Source of the DNA: a virus
Taxonomy: Duplodnaviria; Heunggongvirae; Uroviricota; Caudoviricetes
Direction: 5' to 3' (one strand)
Virus record (IMG/VR): IMGVR_UViG_2563366903_000014
Length of the DNA stretch: 9,380 nucleotides
The position numbers were made by a program, and so were the translations under genes. The number at the start of each line of letters is the position of its first letter. Position 1 is the first letter of the stretch. A model generated the notes under the pieces. That model was not told the origin of the DNA. It searched no databases and saw only the letters and a list, made by a program, of their open reading frames with translations. Positions 1 to 9,380 of this stretch are shown piece by piece.

Positions 1-747
1 AATTGTGTCCTTCGTAGTAATTAAACATCAAGAAACCTTAACAACATCCAATAAAGATTATATTGTATTCAGATATGCAGTAGTATTATTTATTTTTATC
101 AATGTACAATTCCTGTAATCTTTCCTGCTATTTCCTTTCAAAATATTTCACAATAAAGTGATAGAACTAATACCCAACATCAGTTAAAAATATTCGCAAA
201 GTACTCCATCACTATCTACAACGCAACTCCATTTCAATATATTCTCTGTTAATCTCATTTTTGTATTCTGTTCAGATTGAATAAAACTCCCCATGATTTC
301 CCATGTTCAAATCAGGAAATACTGATGATCTGATTTCTTTAGATCAAATTTCTGAGATTACTTTATATTTATCTATCAAGCTGTATACCTTTATACCTGT
401 TATACCAGAGCAAAAAACAAATGAGCTACAACATAAAACCTGTTTTGCAATAAAGCTCACAAATTAAGCATATTTCCATATCTGATAGTCGTTACAAACA
501 AGTCTTTTCCAGCCGTTACTTCCAGCATTACCGTATGGCTGACATTTACGAGGCGGATTTGAGTTCACTGTCAGTTACGGGCTGTGTATTTGCGCGCGCC
601 CACTGTCTGGATCGGGGGACACGTTTATCCGGCGTTGCTCCCATGCTTCGGTCACCCTCCACATGTACGCCATCGCTACGCAGTCAAACTAACCAATTAC
701 TGCGGCAGGACTCTCACCTGCAAGACACTGAGCAGCTTTCGAACCGC

Positions 748-1188
748 TCAGAACGGGATATCGTCAGGGAACAGGTCATCGTGATTATTCTGCGGTGGAT
801 GTCCCCGTGATGAGGTCTGTGCCCCTGTGTTTTGTGGCTGGCCTGTGTGTTTTCTCTGACCTCCACCAGGGCGAACAGTACGGGCACTGATTACGCTGTC
901 GGCGATAACCTGCCACCCCTGCCGCGTCTCCCCGTTCTGTCCGGTCCACTGGCTTATCTGCATGTTACCCGCCACGCTGATAAGGTCGCCTTTCTGGTGC
1001 TTCGCCAGATGGTCGGCCTGTTTACCAAAGGCTGTTACGGCAAGCCATAGAGTCGCCTGTCCGTCATCTGCGTTATGGCACGGTACGGATACCGCCATTC
1101 TCGCCAGCGTCATGTTTGTACCCTTGCTGGTCTGTTTTACCTGCGGGTCGTCCACCAGCCGCCCGTAAGCTGCAATCTGTGCTGTCAT
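748..1188 (-). CDS. ssb: Single-stranded DNA-binding protein (short phage/plasmid-type SSB)
   Basis: 146 aa; OB-fold pattern resembling E. coli SSB (IAAYGRLVDDPQV...TLWLAVTAFGKQADHLAKHQKGDLISVAGNMQISQWTGQNGETRQGW); Gly/Gln/Pro-rich linker; C-terminus ends DDIPF, the canonical SSB acidic tip. ATG at 1186-1188 overlaps stop of upstream ORF (ATGA). Confidence 0.85.
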   Translation of the reverse strand: MTAQIAAYGRLVDDPQVKQTSKGTNMTLARMAVSVPCHNADDGQATLWLAVTAFGKQADHLAKHQKGDLISVAGNMQISQWTGQNGETRQGWQVIADSVISARTVRPGGGQRKHTGQPQNTGAQTSSRGHPPQNNHDDLFPDDIPF

Positions 1189-1634
1189 GGTCTGCGCTCC
1201 TTGTTCCGGTACTCCTGGATAATATCCATTGTCATATCAAATAAATCACACGCTGCTTTTTCTGCGTCTTCTGCTTTCAGGTCATACAGCGTCATGAAAT
1301 GGTGAGTGATTGCCCGTGCGGCTCTTTTGCTGTTTGCTGCATATTGCTCATAGATTTTTTCTGCCCTATCCTCAATGTCTCGCCGGAATTCTTCACGCTC
1401 AAACAGGTCGCGGTGTATCAACACCAGCGAGTCATTCAGCCATGTCACATCGGCGTAGACTGTTCGCTTCCAGACAATCAGGATCGGGATATGATTTTCA
1501 TCGCAGTAATGCAGATGTTTTCCTGGCACTAAAAGCACTGGCCTGCCTCGTGCCGATACGAACTTCACAACAGATCCCTGTTCGGTTAAATCGATGGCGG
1601 GTGAGTGTGATTTTTTAGCGTGTTTCTCTGTCAT
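1185..1634 (-). CDS. Hypothetical protein (149 aa), translationally coupled to ssb
   Basis: ORF with GAGGAAA Shine-Dalgarno 8 nt upstream of ATG at 1632-1634; stop overlaps ssb start (ATGA). No family recognised by eye. Confidence 0.55.
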   Translation of the reverse strand: MTEKHAKKSHSPAIDLTEQGSVVKFVSARGRPVLLVPGKHLHYCDENHIPILIVWKRTVYADVTWLNDSLVLIHRDLFEREEFRRDIEDRAEKIYEQYAANSKRAARAITHHFMTLYDLKAEDAEKAACDLFDMTMDIIQEYRNKERRP

Positions 1635-1921: not shown

Positions 1922-3742
1922 TTAATTTTTATCACCCTCATTTTTCACTGGTGCACATGACGGCAGCCAGTCCTCAGACTCATCCATCAGTATCACGTTT
2001 GATCGCACACCTTCTTTCGTTCTCTTTTTCATATACTCCCTGCCATATTCCGCCATTGCGCCTGGCATATCTGCACCGAAGCGCGTCAGTGTTACGGGCT
2101 TACTGAAACCGTGCGCCCTCATATACGAGAGATAGGCGTGATAGAGATAACGGCGCGGACTGAACGGAATAATCTCAGCATTACCGACTAACAGGCCGTC
2201 ACACATTACCGACGACATGAGATAGCCGCAGAAGTCCACCAGCGAATCCCCCTCACGCTTTATTGCAAGGGCTTCTTCTGATTTCTGCTGCTCATGTAAC
2301 AGGCGTCTGGCTTCGTCCTGGTCAGAAAAGCGCGTAAGCAGATGACGAATCACTACAGCAAGCTCACCCTCTATTTTTTCCGGCAGCATCGGATCGCGCT
2401 CGTTTTCCGGTACAACCTCCGAAAAATTGAATATCACACGACGACGCGAGATCCCCCCGCTGCGGTCACTGAATGACATGGCGCTGTTGTTAACCGCCAG
2501 CACTACCGCCGGAATACGCGTTGAGTATGGCGCTTTGTGTTTCGGGTCAATTGCCACCTTGTCACCGCCCGTAATGGCCTTTATTCCTGCTCCATCACCC
2601 GCGTAGCGGGTCATATCCGGCAGAATAATCAGTGAAAAGCCAACCACTAACGCGCGTTCCCTTGCATCCTCCAGTGCCTTCATGCTTGCCGATACCGTGT
2701 TGGCCTTACCCGCCAGCATGGTACAAATCTCCGCCATAACGCTTTTACCGCTTCCACCAGGACCAGTTACCTCAATGAATAACTGCCAGTCGTACCGGTT
2801 CGCCAGCACCATAAATAACGCTGCCAGTACGCGATCCGCCTTGCGGTCATTCTCTGCCACCGAACGGCGCAACCATTTCCAGAAATTCGGCGCATGTGTT
2901 GCCAGCGTTTCACCCTCTGCTGGTGGAGTGAACGGTAACTCACTGGCAATTAACAGCCAGTCATCTTTATCGTGTTCCCGAAAATCACCTGTACGGGTAT
3001 CAAATACCCCGTTGCTGAATCCAATCAGGTGACGGGCGGTATTACCCATTACGGGTAAACTTAACTTCATTGTGTCAACTGCCGATTTAATGGCGTTTTG
3101 TGAATAGCAGATATCTTCGTCAATGAAGATTTGCGCCATTGTGCGCTGTAGCTCTTTGTCCTGCACGGGGGACCATATAACCCCGTTGTAATAGTGAACT
3201 GTGTCAGAGTCAGGGTTTATTGCCAGTTCCCCTCCGTAATGAGCAAGAAGAACCCTGCCACGCTGGCTGGCCCCCATCTGGTTAAGTGCCAGTGACGAAT
3301 CATCACCCTGTCCCCGCGCTTTTTTCTTTACAGGCAGCTCAATAACCAGCCCGTCAGAAATGTTTTTGCGTTCAATATCCAGATAGTTACGCCAGTTCTG
3401 CCGCTCGTTGTGGTGCATTCCTTCAGGGTAGTAATCAGCATCCTGTATACCTGCGGCTGCCAGCTTCTGACCGATGCCTTTGACCATCATCTGATCGAGG
3501 TGTCCGGCCTTGTATATACGCGCTGATTTGCGCCCGTCGGGCACAATTTTCAGATTGCCAATATCCTTAAGTTGTTCATCAGAAAGCACGACTGGCGGAA
3601 CATCATCACCTGCAAGTCGTCCCTCCTGCTCCTGCCACTGTTTCGCGTGCGCCCACGCATCACTGCCAGCGAAAATAATCACTTCCGTATCGGCGTGTTT
3701 TTTCCCTCGCGGCTGTTTTTTTAAGTTCGGTGCGCTTTTCAT
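1922..3742 (-). CDS. DNA primase/helicase, P4 alpha-like (phage/plasmid primase with C-terminal P-loop NTPase domain)
   Basis: 606 aa; Walker A motif GPGGSGKS in the C-terminal half; N-terminal region primase-like; start ATG overlaps stop of upstream small ORF (ATGA at 3739-3742); iterons immediately downstream. Confidence 0.88.
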   Translation of the reverse strand: MKSAPNLKKQPRGKKHADTEVIIFAGSDAWAHAKQWQEQEGRLAGDDVPPVVLSDEQLKDIGNLKIVPDGRKSARIYKAGHLDQMMVKGIGQKLAAAGIQDADYYPEGMHHNERQNWRNYLDIERKNISDGLVIELPVKKKARGQGDDSSLALNQMGASQRGRVLLAHYGGELAINPDSDTVHYYNGVIWSPVQDKELQRTMAQIFIDEDICYSQNAIKSAVDTMKLSLPVMGNTARHLIGFSNGVFDTRTGDFREHDKDDWLLIASELPFTPPAEGETLATHAPNFWKWLRRSVAENDRKADRVLAALFMVLANRYDWQLFIEVTGPGGSGKSVMAEICTMLAGKANTVSASMKALEDARERALVVGFSLIILPDMTRYAGDGAGIKAITGGDKVAIDPKHKAPYSTRIPAVVLAVNNSAMSFSDRSGGISRRRVIFNFSEVVPENERDPMLPEKIEGELAVVIRHLLTRFSDQDEARRLLHEQQKSEEALAIKREGDSLVDFCGYLMSSVMCDGLLVGNAEIIPFSPRRYLYHAYLSYMRAHGFSKPVTLTRFGADMPGAMAEYGREYMKKRTKEGVRSNVILMDESEDWLPSCAPVKNEGDKN

Positions 3743-4032
3743 TTCTTACCTCTGCTGATCGTCTTCTTCATGGCCTTAACATGCGCCTTTGCTTTGTTGT
3801 TGCTGGTTGGGCTACGACGTGGTACGGCCTGCACCAGGGAAAAATCACGCCGGAACTGACAAACAGGCATCACGCAGTCATAGTCATACCCTTCACGGCG
3901 GTAGGTGATGCGCCGTTCCCTCATGCTGATAATCATCACGATGCCGCCGTACTTATCGCGGTAAATATCCCCGCGCATAAATTCGGGTTGAGTTTTGCCA
4001 CTGGCAGTTAAGCCAGTATTTTTTGATTTCAT
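3739..4032 (-). CDS. Hypothetical small basic protein (97 aa) immediately upstream of and coupled to primase
   Basis: AGGAG Shine-Dalgarno about 10 nt upstream of ATG at 4030-4032; stop overlaps primase start. Very basic C-terminus. Function unknown. Confidence 0.5.
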   Translation of the reverse strand: MKSKNTGLTASGKTQPEFMRGDIYRDKYGGIVMIISMRERRITYRREGYDYDCVMPVCQFRRDFSLVQAVPRRSPTSNNKAKAHVKAMKKTISRGKK

Positions 4033-4293: not shown

Positions 4294-4478
4294 TACTGCA
4301 CCCCATTTATTTCATGAACGGCGTGGATAATTACGCCGGATAAACCGGCTTTAGCTGATTTGTTAATTACTGTGCTGATTGCAGCCTGGACGTTTTCGGC
4401 CTTCACGTTCTGCGTGATGCCAACGGTATAGCCGCGATTATTAACAGCACGGGAAAAGACGCGGAAGGTTTTAAGCAT
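4293..4478 (-). CDS. Hypothetical protein (61 aa)
   Basis: Strong Shine-Dalgarno AGGAGGTGA 5 nt upstream of ATG at 4476-4478; first gene of the leftward operon ending in primase. Confidence 0.55.
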   Translation of the reverse strand: MLKTFRVFSRAVNNRGYTVGITQNVKAENVQAAISTVINKSAKAGLSGVIIHAVHEINGVQ

Positions 4479-5110
4479 GAGTCACCTCCTGACGGATACG
4501 GGCGACAAAAATCAGATGTGCGTGCGGCAGCTGCGCGCGTGCTTCGCGCTCAGTGGCAGCTGTAACGGTGAATATTGCAATGCTGCCTGTCAGGCACTGC
4601 ATAAAGCGCCAGACAAAGTAAGGGCGTGCAGATACAGCCATGTGAAAGGCACCTCTGACTTTGGGATTATACCCACCGCCCAAGAGGCCAATCTTGCTGG
4701 CGGTGGACTGTACGGAATTGGCCTTACTGGTGTTAGAGGAAACCAGCCTTCCCGAAGGAAGTTCCATACAGCCCACCATTGTTGAGGTGTGCGTGTGCGC
4801 CGATACAAAAAAAGACGCTGGCGCGTCGTGTATCGCCTCTAACTCCAGCGGGAGGCCAATCCCGATCCCCGTTTTATAAGGGATAGCCTCAGTATATGCC
4901 GCTTTTTTGCTTAAGTGGTCGGATGTGTTGCGAGAAAAGTTTGTGCGAAAAATACCTGCGTTTTCTTTGAAAGCACATAATAACATCACGTTATTTATGT
5001 TTATGCAGTGTGTCGCAAAGCGACCTGAATCATCACGCAAATTACAACCATAAAAAATACCTGCGCTGTGATATGAGGTACTACAGCGCACCGCTTTACG
5101 GGTACAGACA
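4479..5110. promoter_or_regulatory. Candidate divergent control region between leftward replication operon and rightward small-ORF unit (palindromes, direct repeats, hairpins)
   Basis: 13-bp palindrome TGCCTGTCAGGCA (4584-4596); hairpin CCACCGCC...GGCGGTGG (4673-4706); GGCCAAT motif three times (4686, 4854, and inverted at 4716); hairpin GACGC-tggc-GCGTC (4814-4827) preceded by A7; 13-nt direct repeat AAAAATACCTGCG (4948-4960 and 5053-5065). Specific -35/-10 hexamers could not be assigned with confidence. Confidence 0.4.
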
Positions 5111-5290
5111 ATGACCAACGAAGAATTACAGGCAATCGCATTATCCATACTTGAGCGCCAGCGCGAAAAAGCACGCCAGAAGCGAGAGTATTTGCTTAAT
5201 CCACCTCCTCTCACCAGACCAAAACGATTTGCGCTTGAAGCATTTCTGGATAAATGCCCTCGGCGGTTAATCTCGCCTAAAAACCGATAG
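5111..5290 (+). CDS. Small basic protein, paralog A (59 aa); unknown family
   Basis: ATG 5111, TAG 5288-5290; C-terminal KRFALEAFLDKCPRRLISPKNR is paralogous to the C-terminus of the next ORF; several nucleotide differences between the two copies are synonymous in this frame (gcg/gca, ctg/ctc, cct/cca, tta/cta, aac/aat, cga/cgc). Confidence 0.4.
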   Translation: MTNEELQAIALSILERQREKARQKREYLLNPPPLTRPKRFALEAFLDKCPRRLISPKNR

Positions 5291-5386
5291 CGATCCGCTT
5301 TTGCTTCTCCGACTCCATAAAGCGAATAAAAACCATCAGCGCCGTGGTGTGAGGTACTGCGTCGCTCAGCTGTACAGGAAATAAGT

Positions 5387-5665
5387 ATGGATTTATCACC
5401 AGACGATGAGAAATTTTTACGACAACTACAACACCAACTACTCATGGATGCCATTGTCGAGCAGCAAACAAAGAGCAGCCCGATAGATTCATCGCTGAAT
5501 AAAAAGGCCGCCTCCCGTTTTATTGAAAACAGGATAAGGCGCGGAAAAACATGTGACGACGAGTCAAAGGCATCGCATACAAGAGATAAAAAATTTGCAC
5601 TTGAAGAGTTTCTCAGGAAATACCCACGGCGGCTAAAAGCAACCAAAAATCGCCCGCCAGGCTGA
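5387..5665 (+). CDS. Small basic protein, paralog B (92 aa); unknown family
   Basis: AGGAAA SD 6 nt upstream of ATG 5387; C-terminal KKFALEEFLRKYPRRLKATKNR matches paralog A; conserved upstream leader motif GTG-TGAGGTACT shared with paralog A; intrinsic terminator downstream. Confidence 0.5.
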   Translation: MDLSPDDEKFLRQLQHQLLMDAIVEQQTKSSPIDSSLNKKAASRFIENRIRRGKTCDDESKASHTRDKKFALEEFLRKYPRRLKATKNRPPG

Positions 5666-5731
5666 TAGCATTGTCCACCAGCTACACTCATGGCATAGTT
5701 GGTGATGCGCTTGATTTCCTTTATCTCCACT

Positions 5732-5762
5732 GGCGACCCTTCCATGGTCGCCTTTGTTTTGC
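5732..5762 (+). terminator. Rho-independent terminator for the rightward small-ORF unit
   Basis: Perfect 7-bp GC-rich stem GGCGACC / GGTCGCC (5732-5738 / 5746-5752) with 7-nt loop, followed by TTTGTTTTG on the plus strand; sits between convergent genes. Confidence 0.55.
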
Positions 5763-5765
5763 CTG

Positions 5766-5978
5766 TCATTCCTGCATCATGCGGATATTCGCGCCGTACA
5801 GGGCCGCCAGCGCGATAATTTGATAAAACCTCCCCAAGTATTGCTTAACGTGTTTCATGCGCTCAGCGGCGAAATGGCTCACGATATGGCGCATGTAATC
5901 AGCATGGTTGATGTTCAGTAGTGCGAACTTATCCGCCGTGTCGATGTACCGGACGGCAGGTTTGAGGATGTCAGGCAT
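5766..5978 (-). CDS. Hypothetical protein (about 70 aa), last gene of the alpA-rha operon
   Basis: ATG at 5976-5978 lies 2 nt upstream of the rha stop codon (ATGCCTGA); alternative GTG start at 5984. Confidence 0.45.
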   Translation of the reverse strand: MPDILKPAVRYIDTADKFALLNINHADYMRHIVSHFAAERMKHVKQYLGRFYQIIALAALYGANIRMMQE

Positions 5979-6708
5979 GTTCACGTTCTCCCAGGCGACG
6001 GGCCAGCCAGCGTTGGGCTAATTCGGTGAGACGTTCTTTACGTTCTGGCGTTGGCATATCCATATCCAGTAGCGCACAGTTACGGCTTTCCAGATACGCG
6101 AGCAACGCCAGTTGATCAGCGGTTATATGGTCACGAACTTTTTTTGATGGGATGCCGTTTTTTTTGGCCCATACAGGCGGGTGCATCCCTAATACAAGGC
6201 GCGCAATGAAAGTACATTCGTTGTTATAAGCATGACCGTGTTGAGTGTCTCCAGTACGCTCTATGTATCCCTTCATGGCATCCCCCATAGAGCGCATCTC
6301 AGCTTTGGCCTCACATCTCTCTGCTATCCAGTTAGCCATGCGGTTAAACTGCGCAATGTATGCCTCTTTGAATGCAGCCGCTTTTTTTCCGGTAAATCCC
6401 ATTGTTAAAAACACGAAGCCGTCTTTGGTGACTTCGTAGGCTCTCAATACGCGCCCCTTATGCTCAAATTTAACCCGCCGAAAATTGCGGGTTAAAAATT
6501 CAGCAGAACAACACAGGTTTTCAATCCGGTTAACAACCTTATCGTGATCCTTTCTGAAAAATCGGGCGATAGCCTGTGAAGTGGTTACAGGCTCACCGCC
6601 AGAAGGAAACACTTCCGGCGCAGTGAGTGCATTTTTATTTATTCCGTCAGCAATAATCTCATTGCCGGAAATTACCGAAATAATTGCGGCGAAATCATAA
6701 TTACGCAT
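5971..6708 (-). CDS. rha: Rha-family phage regulatory protein (antirepressor-like)
   Basis: 245 aa; N-terminal region carries the Rha signature (VTTSQAIARFFRKDHDKVVNRIENL ... DGFVFLTMGFTGKKAAAFKEAYIAQFNRM); start overlaps the upstream gene by 8 nt. Confidence 0.82.
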   Translation of the reverse strand: MRNYDFAAIISVISGNEIIADGINKNALTAPEVFPSGGEPVTTSQAIARFFRKDHDKVVNRIENLCCSAEFLTRNFRRVKFEHKGRVLRAYEVTKDGFVFLTMGFTGKKAAAFKEAYIAQFNRMANWIAERCEAKAEMRSMGDAMKGYIERTGDTQHGHAYNNECTFIARLVLGMHPPVWAKKNGIPSKKVRDHITADQLALLAYLESRNCALLDMDMPTPERKERLTELAQRWLARRLGEREHA

Positions 6709-7216
6709 GATTCACCCCCAGAGACGGCGCTGACGTCATCAGGCTGGCGAACGTCTCCATGCGGCGAGCAACTTCCCGCACCGCTTCGGTCGGTGTCATG
6801 CCGTTCTGTATCGCCTCGTTAAAAGCCGATATCCCGATTTCTTGTACAACTGACAACAAATGAAAGCGGTGTTTTGTTTCGTCCTGCTTGAGGTGGCGCA
6901 TATGTTCTGGGTTACGACCGCGAACAATGCGTAACAAGTAATCATGTTGCATTTCATTCAGCATATAGCGCATTTCTGGGCGACCGCGCTTATGGCCTGA
7001 TTTCAGACTATAGCGAGGCAATGCTCCCAGATCGCGTAACTGCTGCTGATGTTTTTTGATCGTCGCGCAAAGACTTTCGTGTTGTATTCCTGCTCGCTCA
7101 GAAATAACGCGGGAATCAATACGCGACTCTGCTTTGTGGCGAATCAATATATCGTTCTGGTTGATTTCAGGCTGAACGAAGCCCTGCCCCTGTACGGGCA
7201 TATTCGGACGTTTCAT
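6701..7216 (-). CDS. Hypothetical protein (171 aa), possible helix-turn-helix DNA-binding protein
   Basis: AGGAG SD 7 nt upstream of ATG 7214-7216; segment ISERAGIQHESLCATIKKH has HTH character; overlaps rha start. Function not recognised. Confidence 0.6.
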   Translation of the reverse strand: MKRPNMPVQGQGFVQPEINQNDILIRHKAESRIDSRVISERAGIQHESLCATIKKHQQQLRDLGALPRYSLKSGHKRGRPEMRYMLNEMQHDYLLRIVRGRNPEHMRHLKQDETKHRFHLLSVVQEIGISAFNEAIQNGMTPTEAVREVARRMETFASLMTSAPSLGVNHA

Positions 7217-7280: not shown

Positions 7281-7484
7281 TTACGCGGCGTTGTTGCGAG
7301 AAGCATCAATACGCTGGTTAATCCATTCGTCGACTTCACTTTCAATAAAAGCCACGGAGCGGGGACCAATTTTTACCGGTTTAGGGAAGCGCCCCAGGCT
7401 GATCAGGCGATAAATCCATGCGCGACCGTAACCAGTACGGCGCATAACCTCAGAAAGACGGATGAATGAATTGTTATTAGCCAT
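7281..7484 (-). CDS. alpA: AlpA/Vis-family transcriptional regulator (prophage CP4-57 regulatory protein family)
   Basis: 67 aa; IRLSEVMRRTGYGRAWIYRLISLGRFPKPVKIGPRSVAFIESEVDEWINQRI resembles E. coli AlpA; AAGGAG SD 8 nt upstream of ATG 7482-7484. Confidence 0.85.
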   Translation of the reverse strand: MANNNSFIRLSEVMRRTGYGRAWIYRLISLGRFPKPVKIGPRSVAFIESEVDEWINQRIDASRNNAA

Positions 7485-7597: not shown

Positions 7598-8126
7598 ATT
7601 GCATAAGATAAATTCAGATTGTTTGGTTGGTATGCTCCAGCAAGGTAGAGCTATTCCCGCTTTCGGCGGGGTCACACGATTAGGCGTGACGTCCAGTAGT
7701 TTTAAAGAGCGCTTTTTCAGTACATGGTGGACGGACAAGAGAGCAATTGCGCTTTGTCAGCGCCGTAGATTCATATTTGAATCGTTGTATGTTTCCCGAT
7801 AGCAAATCTATCGGTCACTGCGGGACGAACCATCCCGCCGCATCAATGTTAAAGATCAACAGCACTTTGCCAGCGCTCCACCGCCTCATGGATGAATCAT
7901 TACATGCTTTGTAATAGTGCATGTATCACCATTCTTTCCTGCATCAGGAAAGCACTAAAGGCTGTTAAAGAGCATCCAGCTTTTCAGCTGCGTAGAAAAC
8001 TCAATCTTCGTTGTTACAAAGAGCGCCCATACATGACGGATAACTGCGTGAAAAACCCTCTGTAAGAATGTTAGCTGTAGCTTTCCGTGTACGTTAGCAT
8101 ACATCTGTATACTTGTCCAGTCGTTT

Positions 8127-9341
8127 TTATGCACATACACTAAACTTGCCGTGCACCACGTTTCCGCCCTGTTCCAGTGAGTCCATATAGTCGGCGTACC
8201 ACTGGAGCATCTCCCGCCGTCCGTCCAGATATTGCGCGTGATTGTATGTGCCACGGATCGAGTTTTTATCGACGTGCGCCAGCTGCGTTTCTATCCACGC
8301 GGAGTTATAACCCTGCTCATGCAAAATTGTACTCATGGTATGCCGGAACCCATGACCAGTAACGCGCCCAGCATAGCCAATACGACGAATAAGCACGTTC
8401 ATCGCCATTTCACTCATCGGTTTACTGTGCTGTATTCGACCAGGGAAAATAAACGGATACTGCCCCGTCATGTGTTTCAGTTGTTCCAGAATAGCAATCG
8501 CCTGTTCTGAAAGCGGCACGCAATGAGGACGGCGCATTTTCATTCGTTCTTTCGGCACTTCCCACAGACGATTATCAAAATCAATCTCCTGCCACTCTGC
8601 CTGCCGCAATTCACCCGGACGGAGTCCTGTAAGAATCAACAATCGCATACCCAGCTTGACGATCTGGCTTCCGGTGTACGTATTAAAAACGCGGAAAAAT
8701 TCCGGTAGCTCATCAACTTTCAGATACGCGTAATGCTCTTTTTTGTGTGGTGCAAATGCGCTTGCCAGATCAGGAGCGGGGTTATATTCAGCGCGTCCGG
8801 TAATTATTGCGTACCGAAACACTTCGCCACATCGCTGGCGAACCTTACGCAATTTTTCAGTTGCGCCACGGTCATTAAGACGGGATAGAACCGCGAGCAA
8901 TTCCATCGGCTTAATCTCTGCGATGGGCCTACCTCCAATGTACGGAAAAACGTCTTTTTCAAACGTCTCTATCATTTCCTCTGCATATGAGGGAGACCAT
9001 CGGTCCAGGCGTTTTTCATACCACTCACGGGCGATCACCTCAAAGGTGTTACCGCATTTGTTCGCCTGTTCTCGCTTTTGGGCCTTTCTGACCTCACTCG
9101 GATTAACTCCACCAGCGATAAGCCTTTTGGCTTCATCCCTTGCCGTCCTGGCATCAGAAAGGGACACCTCAGGATAGACACCCAGCGACAACATTTTGGG
9201 CTTGCCTGCAAACCTGTATCGCAATCGCCAGCCCTTCGAACCGTTCGGCTCAATGAGTAACGAAAGCCCGTTGCCGTCATTGAGTGTATAGGCTTTCTCT
9301 TTTGGCTTCGCGCGGCGGATAGCAAGGTCTGAAAGCAACAT
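8127..9341 (-). CDS. int: Tyrosine recombinase / P4-family integrase
   Basis: N-terminus MLLSDLAIRRAKPKEKAYTLNDGNGLSLLIEPNGSKGWRLRY matches the P4/CP4-57 integrase N-terminal pattern; C-terminal catalytic motifs HGFRHT and RGTYNHAQY. ORF is open to the window edge (alternative ATG at 9378-9380), so the true start may be 9341 or lie further upstream. Confidence 0.88.
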   Translation of the reverse strand: MLLSDLAIRRAKPKEKAYTLNDGNGLSLLIEPNGSKGWRLRYRFAGKPKMLSLGVYPEVSLSDARTARDEAKRLIAGGVNPSEVRKAQKREQANKCGNTFEVIAREWYEKRLDRWSPSYAEEMIETFEKDVFPYIGGRPIAEIKPMELLAVLSRLNDRGATEKLRKVRQRCGEVFRYAIITGRAEYNPAPDLASAFAPHKKEHYAYLKVDELPEFFRVFNTYTGSQIVKLGMRLLILTGLRPGELRQAEWQEIDFDNRLWEVPKERMKMRRPHCVPLSEQAIAILEQLKHMTGQYPFIFPGRIQHSKPMSEMAMNVLIRRIGYAGRVTGHGFRHTMSTILHEQGYNSAWIETQLAHVDKNSIRGTYNHAQYLDGRREMLQWYADYMDSLEQGGNVVHGKFSVCA

Positions 9342-9380
9342 GTGTATAGCCCCCAAAAAACGATTTTGTCCTATACGCAT

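Follow-up and report, generated by a model that had tools for sequence, protein, structure and literature searches.

What is the AT-rich block at the left edge of this DNA, where the composition breaks abruptly next to the last gene of a conserved replication module and short repeats cluster? The window (the whole stretch that was analyzed, 9,380 nt) is separated by one mismatch, at position 8067, from Escherichia coli ED1a (CU928162.2), and window position p corresponds to position 11189-p of the ED1a locus (L005). Every gene of the window lies on the minus strand (Table 1). A tyrosine integrase gene has its ATG at the right end (9380), and position 1 of the window directly adjoins the ATG of a leftward-reading nanX (yjhB)-like gene, here called nanX', which encodes a 405-residue MFS transporter. 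The answer we consider very likely is that the block is the NanR-site control region of nanX'Y', a self-contained cassette that occupies the slot of a PICI-like island at glyU and abuts an intron scar.

Table 1. Positions, strands, and supporting remarks for the features of the window
Feature	Positions	Strand	Basis or remark
Integrase	8127-9380	minus	
AlpA	7281-7484	minus	
Weak Rha-like ORF, 171 residues, under Pfam cut-off	6701-7216	minus	
Rha-family gene	5971-6708	minus	
Ash-family gene	4471-5769	minus	
DUF4222	3739-4032	minus	
D5-type primase-helicase	1922-3742	minus	D5_N/DUF5906/Pox_D5 domains
Probable replication origin of island	1676-1915	none	At least 12 iterons
ORF, 149 residues	1185-1634	minus	
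ssb, last gene of conserved replication module	748-1188	minus	Pfam SSB, E 6e-17
Group II intron remnant, part of domain I	519-750	minus	Rfam RF02003 and 91-92% identity
Junction filler, 18 nt	501-518	none	Covered by neither flanking homology
Predicted nanX'Y' promoter, operator, and ~390-nt leader	1-500	minus	nanX upstream homology
Putative CRP-like site	446-461	minus	8 of 10 consensus positions
Predicted NanR operator	384-406	minus	(GGTATA)3 match, conserved
TGATCT/AGATCA inverted repeat, chance feature	326-346	none	4 seen vs 3.5 expected
Open frame, non-gene	2-118	plus	Closed 103 nt left of window

The preliminary description had reported a sharp change in composition at the left edge, and the change is there: GC content is 0.297 in 1-518 compared with 0.55 in 519-747 and 0.571 in ssb, while the rest of the window stands at 0.484. 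Its placement at about 535 was 20 to 30 nt too far right, since the maximum-likelihood change point, searched over 1-1200, falls at 508, with GC of 0.29 to its left and 0.57 to its right. Every minus-strand frame is indeed closed within positions 21-40, with stops at 21, 28, and 38, one per frame, because the minus-strand gene nanX' starts immediately left of position 1. The plus-strand frame at the very edge had been taken for the possible 3' end of an AT-rich upstream gene. In the flanking sequence a stop 103 nt left of the window closes it; it amounts to 74 codons in total, runs antisense across the start of nanX', and is not the 3' end of a gene.

Homology identifies what the block contains. 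Positions 19-500 align at ~68% identity to unannotated DNA in 1,165 E. coli genomes, and in every case inspected this DNA sits directly upstream of nanX (yjhB). Alignment to the canonical nanX counterpart gives 72.6% identity across 485 columns, with no more than background similarity past position 500. On this homology, a leftward-reading two-gene operon, nanX'Y', has its cis-regulatory DNA and a long leader in positions 1-500, which makes the AT-rich block a second allele of a promoter already known to be controlled by NanR.

The three TATACC direct repeats that first drew attention to the block are present at 384, 392, and 401, and on the minus strand the triple reads GGTATAACAGGTATAAAGGTATA, with the layout GGTATA-ACA-GGTATA-AA-GGTATA, i.e., with spacers of 3 and 2 nt. 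The window has this spaced triple once and 0 of 200 dinucleotide-preserving shuffles contain it, and elsewhere in the 9.4 kb there are just two more copies of TATACC and one of GGTATA. Such an arrangement is far beyond chance. The 29 nt at 381-409 do not vary when the window is compared with the nanX upstream regions of three canonical E. coli copies and with Siccibacter turicensis, in which nothing outside this 29-nt operator segment aligns; of all features of the AT-rich block, this invariance points most strongly to functional constraint. NanR binds three GGTATA repeats spaced 2 to 3 nt apart in the nanATEK, nanCMS, and yjhBC promoters (PMC3658417, PMC8012715), it controls yjhBC (PMC8012715, PMC3658417), and both its binding and its derepression by Neu5Ac have been demonstrated for the canonical operators (PMC8012715). 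The block has three GGTATA repeats with gaps of 2 to 3 nt, lies upstream of a sialic-acid operon (the operator sits 384 nt from the nanX' ATG), and is homologous to a known promoter. We infer putative control of nanX'Y' by NanR and induction by Neu5Ac. As a separate observation, a 265-bp contig assigned to Methylobacterium mesophilicum (NZ_BPQU01000128.1; L019) holds an exact 28-nt nanX-type NanR operator, and it is most likely enterobacterial contamination of that assembly.

Direct repeats in AT-rich DNA beside replication genes could also be iterons, and the block could then be the replication origin of a satellite. E. coli PICI origins are AT-rich, with iterons downstream of the pri-rep genes (PMC6092414), and the block is likewise AT-rich and has three direct repeats. 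A much better candidate lies elsewhere in the window: the AT-rich gap directly downstream of the D5-type primase-helicase gene has GGTGAACAG/CTGTTCACC in at least 12 copies, with both orientations represented. This field of repeats is probably the iteron replication origin of the island, and its presence there removes an origin as an explanation for 1-535. The block is also homologous to nanX upstream DNA in genomes that have no adjacent satellite, and its repeats are exactly those of a NanR operator, so that we regard an origin at the left edge as extremely improbable. Short direct repeats in an AT-rich junction between core and cargo may thus be operators for host transcription factors, not sites of recombination or replication.

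Reading the block as a promoter region, its other candidate element is a CRP-like site, TGTGAGCTTTATTGCA, a half-palindrome whose distance upstream of the operator is 55 nt. In the canonical nanX upstream region a site matching 9 of 10 consensus positions, TGTGACATCAGTAACA, lies at an equal offset, and we treat the copy in the window as a putative CRP site. If the -10 element is TATAAC (404-399, in the first operator repeat), transcription would start near 392 and the center of the CRP-like site would lie at -61.5. A consensus promoter and terminator scan of 1-800 gave no minus-strand hit, and its hit count was below that of shuffles. With no minus-strand sigma-70 promoter in the consensus scan, the promoter is placed by geometry only.

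Several other features of 1-535 proved to be ordinary or were rejected. The inverted repeat TGATCT (326-331)/AGATCA (341-346) is present as described, but the meaning attached to it does not hold: it is at chance level and is not conserved in the canonical nanX upstream region, and as many 6-bp inverted repeats as are seen in 1-535 arise in 43% of simulations. An Rfam search of 1-1300 at E <= 1 found an intron fragment only, leaving the leader without a riboswitch or sRNA, and the fold of the leader (1-395, minus strand) has no special structure (z = +1.0). One candidate leader peptide, a 36-codon minus-strand ORF at 184-294, is not conserved, because its start falls in an 11-nt insertion missing from the canonical sequence. 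The plus-strand ORFs at 303-467 and 535-810 have no Pfam or PADLOC match, and the second overlies intron RNA and the end of ssb.

That intron fragment accounts for the DNA between the block and ssb. Rfam model RF02003 (group-II-D1D4-4) matches 570-723 on the minus strand with 67.1 bits (gathering score, 49; E 3e-14), and 519-750 is 91-92% identical to the 5' end of intact introns of ~2.0 kb. Intact copies lie in hcaF of E. coli M8, in the antisense orientation, and on a plasmid contig directly after an ssb gene. An intact copy has RF02003, an RT/maturase ORF, and RF00029; window positions 1-1300 have neither an RF00029 match nor an RT ORF. The domain I-IV signature of a group II intron is therefore here and its domain V/VI and RT/maturase parts are missing, and with no RT/maturase gene or domain V/VI in the window, what is left is a truncated remnant that cannot splice or move. 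By its homology, 519-750 corresponds to the 5'-most ~230 nt of a group II intron, one inserted at the ssb stop codon and truncated afterward. It shares domain I with bacterial group II introns that encode an RT/maturase (ltrA-type) and has the same position after ssb as the intact copy on the plasmid contig, whereas only about 230 of the about 2,000 nt of intact ltrA-type introns remain. Ahead of each of the three intron copies stands GACGATATYCCGTTY, which encodes the C-terminal DDIPF of SSB, and the intron probably targets the end of ssb.

At the left border of the intron remnant, the nanX upstream homology stops at 500 and the intron begins at 519, leaving 501-518 outside both, and TTCCAGC, a heptamer at 507-513, is repeated at 520-526. 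The boundary is a composite of the ssb stop at 748, the intron remnant, the filler, and nan regulatory DNA from about 500 leftward. We read the GC step at about 508-519 as a recombination scar where the nan cassette abuts the broken intron, with a presumed order of events. The intron loci compared are window 519-750, L009 6001-6231, and L010 5225-7233, and the 15-mer with the intron-flanking DDIPF codons, GACGATATCCCGTTC, is found in hcaF of E. coli M8 as well.

A check of whether the conserved core ends near 535-750 had been suggested, and the homology shared with related islands ends at ssb or a short way into it (window 748-866). It stops at window position 863 for a sister island (L008) and at 748 for another locus (L001), and 2,081 E. 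coli genomes match a query of 1-1200 over 748-1188 or 841-1200 only. The features of the block are explained by known elements, namely a NanR operator, a nanXY-type leader, and a group II intron remnant, and have an ordinary cause.

The genes served by this control region lie just outside the window, where nanX' starts at L005 11189 and reads away from it. NanX' scores 769 bits against the YjhB equivalog NF008963 (cut-off, 637), the NanY' protein is 87% identical to annotated NanY, and the coding DNA of nanX'Y' is 87.8% identical to canonical nanXY. The order nanX' to nanY' is that of K-12, in which the gene for a YjhB-type MFS transporter precedes that for a YjhC-type Gfo/Idh/MocA enzyme, and by gene pair and order nanX'Y' is a member of the nanXY (yjhBC) operon type. 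A terminator hairpin (z = -4.0) follows nanY', so that the cassette of ~2.9 kb has its own operator/promoter region and its own terminator, with a GC content of 0.30-0.36 compared with 0.48 for the island. Gut bacteria such as Ruminococcus gnavus free 2,7-anhydro-Neu5Ac from mucins. Growth on this compound requires nanXY (PMC7535918, PMC7315737), and only about 15% of the isolates in one survey carried canonical nanXY (PMC10088187).

Canonical nanXY (yjhBC) is the third NanR-controlled sialoregulon operon and the nearest known relative of this cassette. The two have the same gene pair, the same order, the same (GGTATA)3 operator with its 29-nt surroundings, and a CRP-like site at an equal offset. 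In both the operator is similarly far (~390-410 nt) from the start codon, both are low in GC, and both lie in a tRNA-linked integrase island. They differ in that coding DNA is 88% identical while upstream DNA is about 70% identical, which means that regulation could differ outside the operator. The site of nanX'Y' is glyU and that of canonical nanXY is leuX; the former lies in a compact satellite-type island and abuts a group II intron remnant, whereas the latter lies in the IS-ridden KpLE2 region and abuts IS4 or IS66. As canonical nanXY is a few kilobases from tRNA leuX and an integrase in K-12, linkage of nanXY to an integrase island is not new in kind. The literature, which was incompletely covered, yielded no description of nanXY in a glyU island or in a satellite.

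One possibility is that the block and its genes are a dead passenger: a decaying, nonfunctional remnant, silenced as AT-rich foreign DNA, in which the operator has been kept by recent descent. In a metagenome assembly (L003 11189-12406), gene calling splits nanX' into products of 84 and 301 residues, which suggests a frameshift or stop in that lineage; the cassette thus decays in some lineages. A degraded attR, an intron remnant that records past deletions in the region, the failure to find a consensus promoter, and a leader without special RNA structure (z = +1.0) would all fit the same view. Both genes are nonetheless intact in 4 of the 5 places listed (nanX', 405 aa; nanY', 367 aa), without frame damage, and are 87-88% identical to functional canonical ones. 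The operator and the CRP-like site have been kept against a background of ~70% identity, and the operator is identical in another genus. We consider a dead remnant unlikely, except perhaps in individual strains, and continue to read the block as the control region of a cassette with intact genes.

As to where the cassette came from, the DNA of nanY' (L005 12419-13522) matches Gfo/Idh/MocA genes at 66-70% identity. These genes lie on megaplasmids of Ligilactobacillus salivarius, on a plasmid of Enterococcus, and in the record of a Staphylococcus phage, a pattern consistent with a low-GC Firmicutes origin. The nan cassette is absent from the phage and plasmid collections, which returned just these 66-70% Firmicutes matches to the nanY part and a mislabeled E. 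coli chromosome.

A compositional step that adjoins the last recognizable replication gene might equally mark the end of the island itself. The block would then be attR, nanX'Y' would be chromosomal, and the TATACC copies would be end or arm repeats. The tRNA-Gly gene glyU lies just past the integrase gene, and its 3' end is attL. An exact and 3-mismatch search for a second glyU 3' end across 20 kb found the tRNA itself only, in keeping with such an island end, and a generic direct-repeat search found no attR. Aligning the empty site, a sister island (L008; strain S1-KEN-03-A, same glyU site), and ED1a located it 5.5 kb past the window, as a repeat that ED1a has in degraded form and the sister island in clean form. 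In the latter, the glyU 3' repeat is followed by empty-site flanking DNA, and in the empty site of strain TUM13754 glyU is followed directly by yqeG, without nanX'Y'. The module past nanY' that ends in antiterminator Q is common to islands at glyU and at other att sites, which also places nanX'Y' inside. A check for recurrence of the TATACC repeats at the island ends had been suggested; the triple is seen once, as the NanR operator of the cargo operon. An island end at the left edge is very improbable, and the nan cassette is cargo within an island of ~14.5 kb (L005 1684-16232), with nanX'Y' in the middle.

The ED1a attR core (L005 16210-16232) has decayed to TTCCCTTtGCCt, and the 67 nt that directly follow it in the sister island (L008 ~16780-16870) and in the empty site are missing. 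Because of this damage, the ED1a copy may not excise precisely or act as a mobile satellite.

Comparison with the sister island defines the slot in which the cassette sits. Common to both islands are the genes from int to ssb and a right module made up of a small ORF, the Q antiterminator, and a repeat block, and the slot is bounded by ssb on one side and by the conserved module ending in Q on the other. In place of nanX'Y', the sister island carries a type II restriction-modification (RM) system (MTase_II, E 3e-164; REase_II, E 7e-124). The islands agree exactly at the right junction: from L005 13602 on, 80 nt past the nanY' stop and just beyond the nanY' terminator hairpin, both read CTAAATAGCTGTTCGG.... 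Five metagenome contigs contain this junction, three with the nan allele and two with the RM allele, and among the data reached only two cargo alleles share exactly these flanks. More distant islands that share the replication module but lie at other att sites have ProQ/FinO plus PerC, a YeeE/YedE transporter, waaB/waaO, or capsid modules after ssb. The 29-mer of the right junction was not found in viral contigs, and in the E. coli genome collection no place reached 80% coverage of window 1-1200 or of the flank queries.

The block therefore edges variable, low-GC cargo beside a conserved satellite core, as the preliminary description had proposed, and is not a conserved spacer without variable genes next to it, since nanX'Y' alternates with an RM system. 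The AT-rich genes predicted upstream do exist, but on the minus strand instead of the plus, and the suggestion of defense homologs did not hold for this allele: the genes form a metabolic operon, and PADLOC found no match for NanX', NanY', or the neighboring small proteins. In terms of a hotspot, alternative content lies between conserved flanks, and anti-phage defense content is lacking here and confined to the sister allele. Satellite and prophage cargo hotspots and phage "morons" likewise place alternative alleles (one here being a type II RM system) between the same conserved flanks, and the nan cassette is like a moron in having its own regulatory signals, a terminator, and a divergent GC content. 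Unlike the cargo of such hotspots, the nan allele is nutritional, not defensive, and the slot has two alleles with exactly these flanks in the data reached.

The island itself resembles phage-inducible satellites. The published layout of E. coli PICIs is int, alpA, pri-rep, iteron origin, and accessory genes toward the far end (PMC6092414), and the island has int, alpA, pri-rep, and an iteron origin in this order. It is about 14.5 kb long, which falls in the range of about 10-15 kb for Gram-negative PICIs, has its own att site, and has no structural or lysis Pfam family among its called genes; no rpp, terS, or cos element was identified in it. The Gram-negative PICIs EcCICFT073 and EcCIED1a.1 have the same layout, with accessory genes at the far end. 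Unlike those PICIs, the island also has Rha-, Ash-, ssb-, and Q-type genes and a damaged attR. The published EcCIED1a.1 is a different island, at yejM-luxR (CU928162.2 2568989-2580428), and we describe the present one as an apparent PICI-like satellite.

We propose a model in which the cargo would be run by the host. The core repressor NanR of the host would bind (GGTATA)3 at 384-406 cooperatively and keep the cargo silent, its binding probably overlapping the -10 element and transcription start of a CRP-assisted promoter. Neu5Ac would release NanR. NanX'Y' would import 2,7-anhydro-Neu5Ac, the presumed substrate, and convert it to Neu5Ac, and the resulting Neu5Ac would enter the host NanATEK pathway and reinforce induction. 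In the history of the locus, a group II intron would have inserted by homing at the end of ssb, and at the junction with the nan cassette everything past its first ~230 nt would have been lost.

In a wider reading, one slot in a PICI-like satellite would have two alleles, a type II RM system or a self-contained sialic-acid operon prewired to host NanR and CRP, nanXY would be mobile between the leuX and glyU islands, and the intron may be a landing pad. We offer this wider picture tentatively, as one that may well turn out otherwise. As the cassette carries the site for a repressor that, to our knowledge, is present in every E. coli, it would join the host sialic-acid regulon on arrival. Since canonical nanXY occurs in such a minority of isolates, a second, island-borne copy could matter for gut colonization by B2 commensals such as ED1a. 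If the picture is true, satellites would spread "regulon-ready" nutritional modules for gut colonization, beyond defense or virulence genes, and E. coli nanXY as a whole would be a mobile cassette moving between tRNA-linked islands. The island offers an example, of satellite type, in which a variable slot holds either a defense system or a nutrient-scavenging operon.

Some further observations concern the right part of these islands. The last recognizable gene, here and in related islands at other att sites, is a phage-type antiterminator Q (L005 15086-15478; Pfam E 3e-51). Near the right end of the ED1a island a repeat block (L005 15748-15920) contains GTTGCCTCAAAT / GTCGCCTCAA and inverted copies; a cos-like reading of this right-end block was rejected, as it had no match in the phage collection. 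The sister island has such a block near its right end (within L008 15647-16794) and a 90%-identical copy at L008 10533-10712, between the primase gene and a hypothetical gene upstream of ssb. In a variant of the RM island on a metagenome contig (ERZ773241 NODE-7325; L024), the region corresponding to L008 7056-11072 is deleted, including DUF4222, the primase gene, and the presumed origin, and this variant is a replication-dead derivative that retains its cargo.
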